Numbered from the stretch's first letter, positions 2,058 to 29,976 are shown. The stretch is 64,000 bases of DNA from an uncultured Acidobacteriaceae bacterium (GCA_963835125.1 CAWIEG010000011.1:16769-80768), one strand, 5' to 3'. Numbers and translations are program-made. Notes: generated by a model from the sequence alone, not told the origin.

Positions 2058-2085
2058 GCTCTTCGCTGTTCGCTTCTGGCGCTTA
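2058..2085. repeat. Heptad (7-nt periodic) array, GCTNTTC type
   Basis: gctcttc gctgttc gcttctg gcgctta, immediately after the peptidase stop codon. Same unit type as the arrays at 29841-29976. Confidence 0.6.
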
Positions 2086-2162
2086 ACGACCATCTGGGTG
2101 TCGCAAAAACTAAGGCGCGCAGAAGAACCCTGCGCGCCGAACAGATTCGTGATTTAGAACTC

Positions 2163-3158
2163 CTAGCGCGTGGCCGCTGCTTCCTGCACTCCGTAGATGC
2201 TGAACCACGATGTCGCAGCCTTCAGCGCGTTGTTCACGTTGTTGATGTTCTTCACGCCTTCGTCCTGGAGCCAGGCTTCGAAGGCCTTGCCACCCTGCTG
2301 CGCGTAAATGGGGATGCCGTCCTTCCACGTTGCCCGTCCGCAGAGCACACCGTTGAACTTCACGCCCGACTCGGCAGCAAACTCCAGGTCCTCGATGAAC
2401 TCGGGATTGCTGACGCCTGCCGACAGATAGATGAACGGCTTGCTGGTCGTGCCCGCGGCTGCGCGATAGTGATCGAGCGCTTCCTTCTTGCTGTAAACCT
2501 TCGTTCCCTTGAACGAGCGCGAGCCCTCGACAAACTGCATGTTGATGGGAATCTCGACCTTCAGCACGTCGACGTTATAACGGTCCTTGGAGAATTCCTC
2601 CATCGACTTGGCGACGACCTCGGGCTTCAGCTTGGCGAAGTCAGCGCCCTTCTCGTCCATGCCCTCTTTGTAGCCGACGAGCTCCAGGAAGAATGGAATG
2701 TCGTTGGCGCGGCACTCGTCGCCGATGCGCTCCGTCCAGGCGTGCTTCAGTTCGTTGACCTTCTGGTCGTCGTAGGGCGTGTAGTAGAGCAGGATCTTGA
2801 CGCAATCTGCGCCGGCTTCTTTCAGGCGCTTCGAGGACCAGTCGTCCAGCAGGTCAGGCAGGCGGCCGGGCAACTGCTTGTCGTAACCGGTCTTCTCGTA
2901 GGCCAGCAGCAGGCCGGAACCTTTGGCGCGGCGCTTCGCGGCCGGCAGTCCCCACTCGGGATCGAGCAGGATGGCGCTGGCGTGCTTGGTCAGGACTTCG
3001 GTGACGTAAATCTTGAACTCTTCCAGTTCTTTGTCGCCGGCATCGGCGCCCAGGGCTTTCTTCAGCGAGCCGCGCTGGTCCATGGCGGCGGCGGCAATGA
3101 CGCCGCGATCGTTGGAAACATTCTTCATGCCCGCGAGTTTTCCAGGAGTCAGTTTCAT
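2163..3158 (-). CDS. Tagatose-1,6-bisphosphate aldolase family protein (LacD-like class I aldolase)
   Basis: MKLTPGKLAGMKNVSNDRGVIAAAAMDQRGSLKKAL... then ...VDVLKVEIP...IYLSAGV... matches the LacD/sulfofructosephosphate aldolase family over its full length. ATG at 3158 is preceded by GGAGGT. The upstream part of ORF 2163..3332 looks non-coding. Confidence 0.8.
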   Translation of the reverse strand: MKLTPGKLAGMKNVSNDRGVIAAAAMDQRGSLKKALGADAGDKELEEFKIYVTEVLTKHASAILLDPEWGLPAAKRRAKGSGLLLAYEKTGYDKQLPGRLPDLLDDWSSKRLKEAGADCVKILLYYTPYDDQKVNELKHAWTERIGDECRANDIPFFLELVGYKEGMDEKGADFAKLKPEVVAKSMEEFSKDRYNVDVLKVEIPINMQFVEGSRSFKGTKVYSKKEALDHYRAAAGTTSKPFIYLSAGVSNPEFIEDLEFAAESGVKFNGVLCGRATWKDGIPIYAQQGGKAFEAWLQDEGVKNINNVNNALKAATSWFSIYGVQEAAATR

Positions 3159-3309
3159 GATGAGACCTCCACGGGCAGATCGCCCGGTTCGATAGAAAGG
3201 ATTGAGTGCAGTCCCGCAGAGAGCGGCTGGGCCCGAGAAGTGCGGGACAGGAAATTCTAAACGAATACGGAGATGCACGCGAGGGATCGGGCGAGTAATT
3301 CGGGCCAAC

Positions 3310-3624
3310 TCAGGGCTTTCGCATGTCCGCAAGCATTTGCTGACGAAGGAGATGATTCGCTCGGGTCTGATATCCCTTACCAGGCCTTTTTAACCAAGCC
3401 ACCACATCGGTATCGAGACGTAGCGAGACAGCTTGTTTGACCGGACGATAGAACCTGCCCCGTACGGCATCCTTCCACGCGCGGAGAGGCAGTTCCGGAA
3501 TGGCAGATGTGTCGATTTGGTGATCCGGCAAAGCAGCCAAAGCCGCCAGGTCACGCTTCTGTTTCGCGGTGAGCGGCTGCCTGTTTCCAGCAGTGCTGTC
3601 CGTCGGCTCACTCGTCCTGCGCAT
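3310..3624 (-). CDS. brnA: BrnA-family antitoxin
   Basis: The C-terminal ...FYRPVKQAVSLRLDTDVVAWLKRPGKGYQTRANHLLRQ is typical of BrnA. It lies directly downstream of, and overlaps, the BrnT gene. ATG at 3624 was chosen over the longer ORF start at 3699. Confidence 0.75.
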   Translation of the reverse strand: MRRTSEPTDSTAGNRQPLTAKQKRDLAALAALPDHQIDTSAIPELPLRAWKDAVRGRFYRPVKQAVSLRLDTDVVAWLKRPGKGYQTRANHLLRQQMLADMRKP

Positions 3625-3928
3625 AGACTCGCCGCTCCTGCGGTGTGGCCTTTCGCGCTGAGATGATGCGGATATTCTCTTCTTCTGCAATGTCTTCATT
3701 GTCGGAATCCGGACTTGTATGTACCACCAGGAGGATATGACTACCTTTTACCATGCCGATCGTATGCCATCTCAATTCTCCTGCGACTTCGCAGTCGAGG
3801 TGAGAGAAATGGTGAGGATCGTCAAAGACCAAGGCTGCGGTTTCAAAACTGACGCGGTGCTTTCGTCGGTTGGTTCGATTTTTTCGTTCGTCCCAACCGA
3901 ACCGCAATGAGCCTCCTAGCCATGACAA
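3608..3928 (-). CDS. brnT: BrnT-family ribonuclease toxin (DUF497)
   Basis: FGWDERKNRTNRRKHRVSFETAALVFDDPHH...IRIISARKATPQERRVY matches the BrnT pattern. The more likely start is TTG at 3907 (MRFGWDE...), preceded by GGAGG. Confidence 0.8.
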   Translation of the reverse strand: MSWLGGSLRFGWDERKNRTNRRKHRVSFETAALVFDDPHHFSHLDCEVAGELRWHTIGMVKGSHILLVVHTSPDSDNEDIAEEENIRIISARKATPQERRVYAQDE

Positions 3929-3965
3929 TTATGTATATACGTCGGGCAAAAGTCCAGGTCCGCGA

Positions 3966-4703
3966 TCACTGCCGCAACGGCAACCCGCTCAGCACCGCCT
4001 GCTGCCGCGCGATCAGCGATTCGATGCCCTGCCGCGCCAGTGCGAGCATCCTGGCAAACTGCGCATCGTCGAACGGGCGACGCTCGGCTGTGGCCTGCAC
4101 CTCGATGAGCTTCTTGCTGCCGGTGGCGACGACGTTCATGTCGACTTCGGCGCGCGCGTCTTCTTCGTAGCAGAGGTCGAGCATGATTTCGCCATCGACG
4201 ATGCCGATGCTAGTGGCGGCAACGTAGTCGCGAATAGGCGCGACCGTCATCGAGCCGGTCTCGACCATGCGGCGCATTGCCAGCCCCATGGCGACGAATG
4301 CTCCGGTGATGGACGCGGTGCGCGTGCCGCCGTCGGCCTGGATGACGTCGCAATCGAGAAAGATGGTGCGCTCGCCCAGCTTCTGCATGTCGGTGACGGC
4401 GCGCAGCGAGCGGCCAATCAGCCGCTGGATTTCGTGGGTGCGACCGCCGGCGCGACCCTTGGTGACCTCGCGCGGCGTGCGGGTCAGCGTGGAGCGCGGC
4501 AACATGCCGTACTCGCTGGTGACCCAGCCTTTGCCGCTGTTGCGCAGGAACTGCGGCACCGAGTCTTCGATGGTCGCGGTGCAGATGACGCGCGTGTTGC
4601 CGAGCTCGATGAGGCAGGAGCCTTCGGCGGTGGAGATGAAGTCGGGAATGATGTTCACCGGCCGCATCTGGTCAGGCGAGCGATTGTCGGAGCGGAAGAT
4701 CAT
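3966..4703 (-). CDS. rph: Ribonuclease PH
   Basis: Full-length match by eye: DQMRPV...AEGSCLIELGNTRVICTA...GWVTSEYGMLP...GRTHEIQRLIGRSLR...DCDVIQADGGTRTASITGAFVA. Confidence 0.95.
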   Translation of the reverse strand: MIFRSDNRSPDQMRPVNIIPDFISTAEGSCLIELGNTRVICTATIEDSVPQFLRNSGKGWVTSEYGMLPRSTLTRTPREVTKGRAGGRTHEIQRLIGRSLRAVTDMQKLGERTIFLDCDVIQADGGTRTASITGAFVAMGLAMRRMVETGSMTVAPIRDYVAATSIGIVDGEIMLDLCYEEDARAEVDMNVVATGSKKLIEVQATAERRPFDDAQFARMLALARQGIESLIARQQAVLSGLPLRQ

Positions 4704-4705
4704 AA

Positions 4706-28667: not shown

Positions 28668-28672
28668 AGCGC

Positions 28673-28754
28673 GTTGTCGGTTGTCTGTTGTCGGTTGTCA
28701 GTCAGACAGCCGCAACGGGTTAACTGACAACTGAGAACCGACAACTGACAACTC
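28673..28754. repeat. Inverted pair of GTTGTCN heptad arrays downstream of rpsI
   Basis: Arm gttgtcg gttgtct gttgtcg gttgtca gt (28673-28704). Arm taactgacaactgagaaccgacaactgacaac (28721-28754). Predicted long imperfect hairpin. Confidence 0.75.
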
Positions 28755-28899
28755 GCTTCATGGTTCCGGGGGCGAGTTGACCAAGCATTAACCGGAACGA
28801 AATCTTCCCGCACTCGCAATTGGGGCGGGCCGACGGGAAAAGCAATCCGGAGCCGGGCGAAAGCCACTGCGAAGGATGCAAGCCAACCGAGGAGGTAGC

Positions 28900-29772
28900 T
28901 TGGCAAACATCACGATGAAAGAGTTGCTCGAAGCGGGCGTTCACTTCGGGCATCAGACGAAACGCTGGAACCCGAAGATGAAGGAATACATCTTCGGCGA
29001 ACGCAATGGGATTTACATCATCGACCTGCAGAAGACGCTGAAGATGTTCAAGGAAGCGTCCAAGTTTGTGCAGGACCAGGCAGCCGATGGCAAGCTGGTG
29101 CTGTTTGTCGGCACCAAGCGCCAGGCCCAGGATGCGATTGCGGAAGAAGCCACGCGCTGTGGCATGTTCTATGTCAATCAGCGCTGGCTGGGCGGCCTGC
29201 TCACCAACTGGGTGACGGTGCAGAAGTCGGTGAAGCGGCTGAAGGAGCTCGACGAGATGGCCACCGATGGCCGTTACGAGCTGCTGCCCAAGAAGGAAGT
29301 TGTCAAGCTGGAGCGCGAGCGCAAGCATCTCCAGGCCAACCTTGCCGGCATCAAGAACCTGAATCGCCTGCCCGACGTGCTGTTCGTGATCGACTCCAAC
29401 AAGGAGCAGATTGCGGTGAAGGAAGCACGCAAGCTGGGTATTCCGGTGGTCGCTGTGGTGGACACCAATTGCGATCCGACGGAAGTGGATTACGTGATTC
29501 CCGGCAACGATGACGCCCTGCGTGCGATCCGCTTGTTCGCATCGAAGATTGCCGACTCTGTGGTGGAAGGCTCGCAGGCCGTGACCGACAAGCAGATGGC
29601 CGACATCTCCGCGGGCGTACAGTACAGCGAGGCGGCTGAGGCCGCTGCCGCCACTCCTGACGGTGAGGAAGGCATCGAGCCTGCCACTTCTACCATTGAT
29701 GACTCCGAAGAGGTCAGCATGGAAGAGGTGCTGGGCCGAGGCGGACGGCGCGCTGAAAATACCAGCGCCTAA
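28900..29772 (+). CDS. rpsB: 30S ribosomal protein S2
   Basis: (M)[26 protein letters not shown]...IIDLQKT...[11 protein letters not shown]...[14 protein letters not shown] at 28900 behind GGAGG; the alternative start is ATG at 28915. Confidence 0.95.
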
Positions 29773-29800
29773 CCGATTTGGATTGACGAGTGGTTCCATG

Positions 29801-29834
29801 GCCCGCGCGTTGATCGAGCGCGGGCGGTTTTTTA
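29801..29834 (+). terminator. Hairpin plus T-tract after rpsB (attenuator or terminator)
   Basis: gcccgcgc-N9-gcgcgggc followed by gg tttttt. Confidence 0.6.
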
Positions 29835-29840
29835 GCAATC

Positions 29841-29976
29841 GCTTTTCGCTGCTCGCCATTCGCTCTTCGCCAGAAGGGCCAGTTGGCGACAACGAAGAGC
29901 TTGGATTTTTGTAATGATGTATACATGATTGCTTTTCTGGCGAAAAGCGAACAGCGAAAGGCGAATAGCGAGAAGC
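29841..29976. repeat. Inverted pair of GCTNTTC heptad arrays between rpsB and tsf
   Basis: Arm 29841-29875: gcttttc gctgctc gccattc gctcttc gccagaa. Arm 29935-29976: ttctggc gaaaagc gaacagc gaaaggc gaatagc gagaagc, ending 1 nt before the tsf ATG. Confidence 0.75.

Follow-up and report, generated by a model that had tools for sequence, protein, structure and literature searches.

Heptad arrays in an uncultured Acidobacteriaceae bacterium as probable stem arms of an intervening-sequence-like hairpin family linked to PF05635 genes

Tandem repeats with a seven-nucleotide unit have been known since the work on short tandemly repeated repetitive (STRR) sequences, and their excess has been recognised since 2007. 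By the account of Mrazek (2007) given in PMC4679880 and PMC4692102, no long simple repeats are more over-represented than heptamers in most prokaryotes, and slippage was proposed. TAACTGA repeats have been described just upstream of start codons poor in Shine-Dalgarno (SD) sequence in Beggiatoaceae, cyanobacteria and Bacteroidetes (MacGregor 2015, PMC4679880), and Xanthomonas genomes each carry 70–75 convergent inverted pairs of GGGAATC repeats, which are transcribed and keep their positions from species to species (Rehm et al. 2015, PMC4692102). In Coxiella, the intervening sequence (IVS) of the 23S rRNA has a 28-bp stem, a loop that holds an S23p open reading frame (ORF), and GACAGAT heptamers repeated in tandem, whose copy number varies; in vitro, RNase III cleaves this stem at the first heptamer repeat, and the authors held the RNA to be of more importance than the decaying ORF (PMC4990558). 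Here we analyse arrays of 7-nt units (heptads) in a 64-kb stretch of DNA from an uncultured Acidobacteriaceae bacterium (GCA_963835125.1, contig C11:16769-80768; hereafter the window), part of a 4.87-Mb, 13-contig genome with 59% G+C, and follow them through that genome and its relatives. The ClpB encoded in the window is 81% identical to the one in a Candidatus Sulfotelmatobacter metagenome-assembled genome, and other Terriglobia supply the matches ranked after it, which makes the organism an acidobacterium.

With a probability that we put at roughly 0.6, the arrays are the arms of the stems in a family of IVS-like palindromic hairpins spread over the whole genome; these hairpins are mostly gene-less and lie between protein-coding genes inside operons. 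The evidence comprises their observed architecture, polarity and placement, a fixed position with turnover of the repeat unit, a one-to-one link with genes of the PF05635 family, and co-occurrence with that family across genomes. A preliminary description of the window had regarded such elements as undescribed. That claim falls, as STRR, TAACTGA (PMC4679880), GGGAATC (PMC4692102) and the heptamers of the Coxiella IVS (PMC4990558) were already published, and the heptad-arm hairpins belong to known kinds, being a variant of both heptamer repeats and S23p-type IVS. A literature search for heptamer repeats in Acidobacteria, or for free-standing PF05635 cassettes with repeat arms, found nothing in the library searched. 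In this genome and its relatives the repeats form 31-nt arms of palindromic elements set precisely between stop and start codons in essential operons.

Tandem repeats were detected with Tandem Repeats Finder (TRF), arrays with a score of at least 40 being called strong, and a genome simulated by a third-order Markov model served as the chance control. The genome contains 611 period-7 arrays compared with 123 in the simulation, and 294 strong arrays compared with none; at the same score there were 7 arrays of period 6, 16 of period 8 and 39 of period 9. The genome-wide scan that the preliminary description had proposed as a check therefore shows an excess over simulated sequence, and its grouping of the arrays as one real, non-random family is upheld. 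The arrays comprise 150 canonical units, with more than 20 unit families together in one genome. The largest family is AACTGAC (82 of the 611 arrays), CAACTGA/TAACTGA being the commonest in this genome, and other leading families are AAAAGCG, AAGAGCG and AATAGCG; AAGAGCT; AACTAGC and AATTAGC; AACCGAC; ACGAGCT; ACTGGCC; and ACAGCTG and AGCTATC. In a large ribosomal-protein operon (G000 C6:41695-48085), CAGTTGT-family arrays were seen in several spacers, around rplP and rplO; ribosomal-protein operons with TAACTGA repeats also occur in Beggiatoaceae (MacGregor 2015, PMC4679880).

Placement was assessed against a gene map from a simple gene caller of our own (3,941 genes, 77% coding, with approximate starts). 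Some 82% of the strong arrays (241/294) were wholly intergenic, and 77% lay between co-directional genes. Among adjacent arrays no more than 400 bp apart, 90 were inverted and 12 direct; a more sensitive search for a partner within 300 bp found an inverted one for 128 of the 294 arrays and a direct one for 17. At 300–2500 bp, inverted and direct partners were equally frequent (27 versus 27), with the exception of a class 410–530 bp apart that encloses PF05635 genes. Other cargo genes were rejected, as those enclosed at 300–2500 bp were ordinary host genes (for example rplP, rplO and rpmG); PF05635 is the sole gene family specifically enclosed by arrays. Overall there are about 90 pairs with a short non-coding loop, six with a PF05635 gene and about 150 solo arrays.

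The pairs have a consistent polarity. Arm order is the same on both strands, with a T-rich 5′ arm and an A-rich 3′ arm in 107 cases versus 18 reversed. The T-rich form begins a median 6–15 nt past a stop codon, usually after an AAG- or AGA-like linker, while the A-rich form lies on the side of the next start codon, so that the abutment of arrays on stop and start codons first noticed in the window is borne out genome-wide. For the 46 genes with an array ending no more than 12 nt from the start, an SD-like motif was present in 28% compared with 50% elsewhere (p=0.004), and TAACTGA-type repeats lie in forward orientation a few nucleotides upstream of the SD-poor starts of clpB, rph and many other genes. 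The median stem is 30 bp long (range 18–47) and the median loop 64 nt, with 87% Watson-Crick pairs in the stems. The periodic mismatches proposed earlier are present in these stems, the commonest class modulo 7 accounting for 0.545 of mismatches versus 0.39 expected (p=7e-9).

Array length does not follow a geometric distribution: 174 of the 611 arrays measure 30–32 nt, with a peak at 31 nt (4x7+3) and a sharp fall beyond 33 nt. In arrays of modal length, conservation is 93–97% at the three phases with five occurrences and only 80–85% at phases 4–5, in agreement with the earlier observation that some heptad positions are fixed and others vary. In the T-form of all unit families, positions 1–2 are G/C-rich and the remainder T-rich. 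Because the five-fold phases are the conserved ones and positions 1–2 are G/C-rich, an arm amounts to five G/C-rich cores at 7-nt spacing. The preliminary view that the arrays are neither CRISPR, nor classical repetitive extragenic palindromic (REP) sequences, nor simple slippage of one identical unit stands, the sharp 31-nt mode arguing against slippage.

In the window, all period-7 arrays of the preliminary description are present in the sequence and ten are confirmed by TRF. Calls were made at 4715-4736, 5006-5042, 13811-13857, 16986-17023, 17426-17458, 17580-17609, 28673-28699, 28722-28753 and 29940-29976, and at 29845-29872 with period 14; the array at 2058-2085 is readable by eye and falls below TRF score 30. 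The arrays are as follows.

2058..2085, + strand: weak solo T-rich array of the CGCTTTT family (GCTCTTC GCTGTTC GCTTCTG GCGCTT), beginning 3 nt past the TAG stop (2053-2055) of a peptidase S9 gene (Pfam)
4708..4736, - strand: A-rich array (minus-strand reading TGACAAC TGGCAAC TGACAAC CAACTGA), stopping 4 nt ahead of the ATG (4703) of rph (RNase PH; Pfam), with no SD motif between array and start
4741..4755, - strand: short second A-form array (GCTAAGA GCTAACAG), upstream of and stacked on 4708..4736, with the unit family of the PF05635 cassette arms at C2:948781
5006..5042, - strand: GAGCYSC x5 array, encoding the last ~20 codons (…GAASRELRAASSE…) of a murI-like ORF at 4982..5443(-)
13811..13860, - strand: solo T-form array of ~7 units (TAG AGC TATCAGC TATCAGC TATCGGC TTTCAGC …), which begins at and takes in the stop codon of a helix-turn-helix (HTH) gene at 13858..14079(-)
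16971..17027, + strand: solo T-form array of ~8 mixed units (CAGTTGT / GTCAGCY) in the hsp20-clpB spacer
17426..17460, + strand: 5′ arm, CAGTTGT x5, of a hairpin around the clpB leader (TRF and fold)
17578..17612, + strand: 3′ arm of that hairpin, GACAACT x5 including TAACTGA (TRF and fold), with a terminal GAGG 6 nt ahead of the ATG of clpB (17618)
28673..28704, + strand: 5′ arm, GTTGTCN x4.5, beginning 5 nt past the rpsI TAA stop (28665-28667)
28721..28754, + strand: 3′ arm, AACTGAC x4.6, of the rpsI-rpsB hairpin, followed by the conserved rpsB leader
29841..29875, + strand: 5′ arm, GCTTTTC-type x5, directly 3′ of the rpsB terminator-like hairpin and its T-run
29935..29976, + strand: 3′ arm, GCGAAAA-type x5.3, stopping 1 nt ahead of the tsf ATG (29978), with the unit family of the PF05635 cassette arms at C2:1776695

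The three inverted pairs had been predicted to form long hairpins, and RNA folding agrees: -55.1 kcal/mol (z -8.9) for the rpsI-rpsB pair, -61.7 kcal/mol (z -6.2) for the rpsB-tsf pair and -93 kcal/mol (z -6.9) for the clpB-leader pair. All of the approximately eleven window arrays are gene-less pairs or solo arms, with no PF05635 ORF in their loops. The array placed by the preliminary description inside murI does lie within the murI-like ORF, but beyond the conserved racemase domain, the Pfam match covering residues 1-108 of 153. This murI-like gene (window 4982-5798, - strand) is itself split into overlapping ORFs (5421..5798 and 4982..5443), both matching PF01177 (profile positions 8-90 and 91-194), through either a frame break or a sequencing error.

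PF05635 is the family of the 23S-rRNA intervening-sequence protein, an Avd-like four-helix bundle. To our knowledge, no nuclease or transposase activity is known for it, and the family is known in two settings only, rRNA intervening sequences and, as the accessory protein Avd that it resembles, diversity-generating retroelements (DGRs). There are six PF05635 loci in this genome, and all six are bracketed by inverted heptad arms 410–530 bp apart; among all predicted genes, just 1.0% are flanked on both sides by arrays no further than 150 nt away (Fisher p=2e-12). Their arm units are as follows.

C8 (gene C8:46139-46543, the atp cassette): GTTGTCA
C2:1776695: CGCTTTT
C2:948781: GCTCTTA
C9: AGCAACT, 21.7 copies, A-rich arm first
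C3, two loci: AAGTTTC

The AGCAACT array upstream of its PF05635 gene (G000 C9:249747-249898, 152 nt) is an exception to both the 31-nt mode and the T-first order. In the cassettes, the 5′ arm comes right after the host stop codon and the 3′ arm ends 5–12 nt ahead of the next host ATG, at atpG|atpD, trpE|trpG, trpG|ABC transporter, pdxS|pdxT, X|topA and response regulator|metzincin-like gene. Neither the six cassettes nor any array examined is in helix 25 or 45 of the 23S rRNA; all are placed between genes for proteins. The units of the six cassettes are also the most abundant unit families of this genome. The preliminary description would have been refuted if the arrays were degenerate copies of one known mobile element's termini. 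This holds by half: they do match the arms of PF05635 cassettes, but belong to many lineages and not to one element.

The association extends beyond this genome. Of 36 PF05635 loci in 41 related genomes of the same order, 31 have a heptad bracket; so do 15 of 23 evaluable Acidobacteriota loci (five more having arms of period 8–10) and 30 of 47 PF05635 loci from other phyla, the last drawn from Planctomycetota, Bacteroidota, Chloroflexota, several proteobacterial classes, Clostridia, Gemmatimonadota, Verrucomicrobiota and two archaea. In the protein tree, PF05635 clades follow the unit family even at differing genomic sites, and differing clades and units also occur in one neighbourhood. A planctomycetotal metagenome-assembled genome (MAG; L303) has a PF05635 gene with heptad arms of ~35 copies on both sides (inverted-repeat score 319), and TAGGGAC/TAGGGAA heptads flank the PF05635 loci of archaeal MAGs L284 and L304. 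Among solved structures, the one nearest to the PF05635 protein here is 2GSC (XCC0516, Xanthomonas campestris), deposited with five chains; PMC4990558 describes the protein as a homopentamer. A role for a DGR-type reverse transcriptase in retro-mobilisation was rejected, as no RVT_1 match was found in G000, G078 or G121, all of which are rich in arrays and PF05635.

A single site, the atpG-atpD spacer, was compared in 28 genomes of the genus and presents all states of the element. In six species it holds a 475–525-nt cassette whose arms are GTTGTCA and whose PF05635 ORF is intact, and in three a GTTGTCA cassette of the same size with a decayed ORF. The other 19 species have an ORF-less spacer of 74–268 nt, which in 18 of them contains array pairs built of other units, or else mixed arrays that do not complement each other; in L170 it is a 74-nt remnant with arms of GTTGTCA, the cassette's unit.

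Comparison with relatives shows that positions are retained while units change. A pattern of ACAACTG x3 (up to 3 mismatches) occurs 50–317 times per genome in 24 other species of the genus, against 0–4 for the reversed control, and is patchy in the sister family. L001, the closest relative outside the genus with a public genome (81% ClpB identity), has no arrays around clpB; arrays are lineage-specific and not bound to the clpB gene. When the rpsI-rpsB and rpsB-tsf spacers were compared in 29 genomes of the genus (about 25 species), nearly every species had an inverted heptad pair at the matching spot in both, directly 3′ of the rpsI stop and directly 3′ of the rpsB terminator-like hairpin. 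Depending on the species, the rpsI-rpsB units are CAGTTGT, CAGTAGC, CAGTGGC or TAGGGAC and the rpsB-tsf units TTCGCTN, TCAGCYN or TTAGCTN, the two arms within each species switching unit jointly. Unit classes are patchy with respect to protein identity, L087 and L088 (Tsf 98.6% identical) sharing the rpsB-tsf unit but not the rpsI-rpsB unit. At the same time, L088, L090, L091, L101 and L102, whose flanking proteins are 90–99% identical, have a near-identical array with equal copy number. The joint change of arms, patchy units and equal copy number together indicate that arrays are stable in the short term and are replaced as whole cassettes. In array-free relatives these spacers are empty, comprising the rpsB leader alone (60–190 nt) or 12–144 nt before tsf; relative to these empty ancestral spacers, the arrays are insertions between stop and start codons.

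Arrays and PF05635 genes also co-occur across genomes. Six sister-family genomes lacking PF05635 have zero ACAACTG arrays. Among eight genomes of the same family, sampled over 56–100 kb each, four without PF05635 showed no strong period-7 array in 340 kb, while four with 3–4 PF05635 genes showed 18 in 351 kb. Genomes of the genus with an intact gene of the GTTGTCA clade have about twice as many ACAACTG arrays as those without (one-sided Mann-Whitney U p=0.015, not phylogenetically corrected).

Some features of the window stand apart from the hairpins. Element density along it is very uneven, with no period-7 array at TRF score 30 in 30001-64000 versus about eleven in the first 30 kb. An Rfam search of the window at gathering thresholds returned two tRNAs and two Acido-Lenti-1 motifs, with no match on the arrays; the motifs, at 28129-28183 (-) and 44461-44510 (+), scored 40.1 and 37.5 bits (gathering score 37), and one of them lies just downstream of genes of the rplM/rpsI region. 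Spacers that hold heptad arrays also contain non-heptad REP-like hairpin repeats (~4945-4985 (-) and many intergenic regions genome-wide), examples being GTCATCCCGAGCGAGCGAAGCGAGTCGAGGGACC, GAGTCCCGTAGGGACG… and AGCCCGAAGGGCG….

Taken together, these data suggest a full element that runs from a stop-proximal, T-rich arm of ~31 nt (four heptads and 3 nt) through a loop and a complementary A-rich arm to the next start codon. Such elements would be co-transcribed with their flanking genes, since the sites at atpG|atpD, trpE|trpG and pdxS|pdxT leave little alternative to transcription inside operons. The transcripts may then fold into imperfect duplexes of ~30 bp, long enough for RNase III, and by analogy with rRNA IVS stems the duplexes could be cut by this enzyme, a gene for which is encoded in the genome. 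After such cleavage the cistrons would be separate, and the downstream gene would keep a leader that is A-rich and SD-poor. The strand-symmetric, T-first order fits such IVS-like processing, because the A-rich arm then faces the downstream start in either insertion orientation. Slippage combined with arm-to-arm templating may keep the two arms alike, and their creation or spread presumably requires PF05635 proteins, acting in cis or in trans.

A bolder version, argued by analogy with REP sequences and their associated tyrosine transposases (RAYTs), is possible but doubtful: PF05635 and the heptad arms would form a cognate protein-repeat system, a pentamer wrapping one arm in the manner of TRAP with one core per subunit, and the few copies with a gene would act in trans to create, spread or maintain the hundreds of arms that lack one. 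Wrapping by a pentamer would explain the period of 7, the 31-nt arm with its five cores, the conserved and free phases and the clade-specific units. Were it true, the PF05635 family would lie behind much of the heptamer excess in bacteria and archaea, including STRR, TAACTGA and the Xanthomonas repeats. Through the tie to PF05635 across phyla, the bacterial excess of 7-base repeats acquires an origin that can be tested, and the elements bear on operon mRNA processing and on translation without SD sequences in Acidobacteriota. Binding of PF05635 proteins to their own arms and cutting of the stems by RNase III are questions that can be taken to the bench.

Several observations weigh against reading the arrays as arms of IVS-like hairpins tied to PF05635. 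About half of the arrays are solo and unable to form a hairpin, and some spacers have non-complementary arrays at their two sides (atpG-atpD in L159, L166 and L178-180; murI-rph in the window), where no hairpin is possible. Across 68 co-directional stems, G.U and A.C mismatches on the sense strand numbered 72 and 81 (p=0.52), so there is no sign of RNA-strand-specific selection; this count neither supports an RNA-level role nor provides strong evidence against one. The co-occurrence of arrays with PF05635 is suggestive rather than conclusive, its samples representing only about five genera, and genomes of the genus without a GTTGTCA-clade gene still have 56–220 ACAACTG x3 matches, which rules out a strict dependence of arrays on the cognate gene. 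The AGCTGAC, ACGAGCT and ACTGGCC families are abundant without a cognate PF05635 gene in this 91%-complete genome. We also considered gene-less loops as deletion derivatives of cassettes and rejected this, having found no ORF or interior remnants: an hmmsearch with the PF05635 profile over six-frame translations of gene-less loops gave 10 weak matches versus 6 in the reversed control (best E = 0.57), and blastn-short of these loops against cassette interiors gave nothing above control. Any descent of gene-less hairpins from cassettes would therefore have to be argued from architecture and from the atp site.

Some of these points would be expected if the hairpins came first and the gene second, a history that we consider unlikely. 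Host-maintained structures resembling REPs or bacterial interspersed mosaic elements (BIMEs), serving as mRNA stabilisers, insulators or translational couplers, would then have received PF05635 genes as later guests that insert into, or survive only in, their loops. Gene-less pairs do outnumber cassettes ~15:1 and their loops lack ORF remnants; positions are held across the whole genus while units turn over, and arrays persist where the cognate gene clade is lacking. A host need, however, does not lead one to expect PF05635-null relatives without any arrays, or array-free relatives that live with empty 12–190-nt spacers at the same sites, and the co-inheritance of protein clade and arm unit, also between different sites, counts against this history too.

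We regard as similarly improbable that the heptads are bound by a regulator that attaches to RNA or single-stranded DNA and controls translation or stability of the flanking genes, as MacGregor proposed for TAACTGA, with the hairpin secondary. Such a regulator would account for the A-rich arms on the ribosome-binding region that displace SD motifs, as in Beggiatoaceae (PMC4679880), for the conservation of three of seven heptad phases with two varying freely, for a fixed length equal to five cores and for the many arrays without a partner. More than 20 unit families per genome, and changes of unit between close species, are nevertheless hard to square with a dedicated regulon, and the 7:1 preponderance of inverted over direct pairs, together with the complementarity of arms, points to the duplex as what is maintained. 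Finally, it seems very unlikely that the arrays are plain microsatellites, heptamers generated by polymerase slippage (Mrazek's explanation) with no identity as elements and no function. Work cited in PMC4679880 puts heptamers first among the long simple repeats of many prokaryotes, copy number in the Coxiella IVS varies between strains (PMC4990558), and a few arrays here are very long, such as that of 21.7 copies at C9. Yet slippage would not give a length distribution that peaks at 31 nt and collapses past 33 nt, imperfect arrays with phase-specific variation, non-random pairing, polarity and stop/start placement, identical copy number among L088, L090, L091, L101 and L102, or a strict link with one gene family.

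Among known systems, heptanucleotide simple repeats share with the arrays a head-to-tail 7-nt unit, over-representation and, as here, a mainly intergenic location; repeats whose length is set by slippage would differ in lacking the sharp 30–32-nt mode, the phase-specific imperfection and the equal copy number across species. The TAACTGA repeats have the same core, sets of 2–6 copies, a forward orientation just upstream of starts and few canonical ribosome-binding sites. In the Beggiatoaceae genome studied, however, there is essentially one unit and only one inverted repeat, compared with 150 canonical units here and nearly half of the arrays in inverted pairs, and no cargo gene was reported, compared with PF05635 at six loci. 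The STRR units CCCCAGT and CAACAGT have a CAGT core in common with units here, but belong to a different phylum and often form much longer arrays. As cited in PMC4692102, cyanobacterial STRR are likewise intergenic tandem heptamers with several unit families per genome and of unknown function; pairing, polarity and a 31-nt mode are undescribed for them in the literature found. The GGGAATC repeats of Xanthomonas, the source organism of structure 2GSC, are also intergenic, of about four heptamer units, mostly between co-directional genes and in convergent inverted pairs, with position and type (single or pair) conserved between species and length varying. They differ in being a single G-rich unit read as G-quadruplex-forming (G4), whereas most of the more than 20 families here are unable to form G4, and no link to S23p or IVS was made in that work (PMC4692102).

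With DGRs the elements share an Avd-like protein; no RVT_1 match was found in G000, G078 or G121. The likeness to REP/RAYT is one of logic: a few gene copies flanked by inverted repeats accompany hundreds of gene-less palindromes that share sequence families, although the arrays here are tandem heptads and the enclosed gene is PF05635. REPs are single 20–40-nt palindromes with GTAG/CGTC heads. Relative to the 23S rRNA IVS, the elements differ in location, at atpG|atpD, trpE|trpG, pdxS|pdxT, rpsI|rpsB and rpsB|tsf instead of helix 25 or 45, and in having hundreds of copies per genome with many unit families; excision by RNase III is proven for the IVS and would apply here by inference. Both have terminal inverted repeats forming a long stem (here a median of 30 bp, z -6.2 to -8.9), and the Coxiella stem heptamers GACAGAT x2-3 are close to the GACAACT of this genome. 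An S23p/PF05635 ORF stands in the loop at six loci, most copies being ORF-less, and, as in Leptospira and Coxiella, where the ORF often decays and the stem stays, the same is seen at atpG-atpD.

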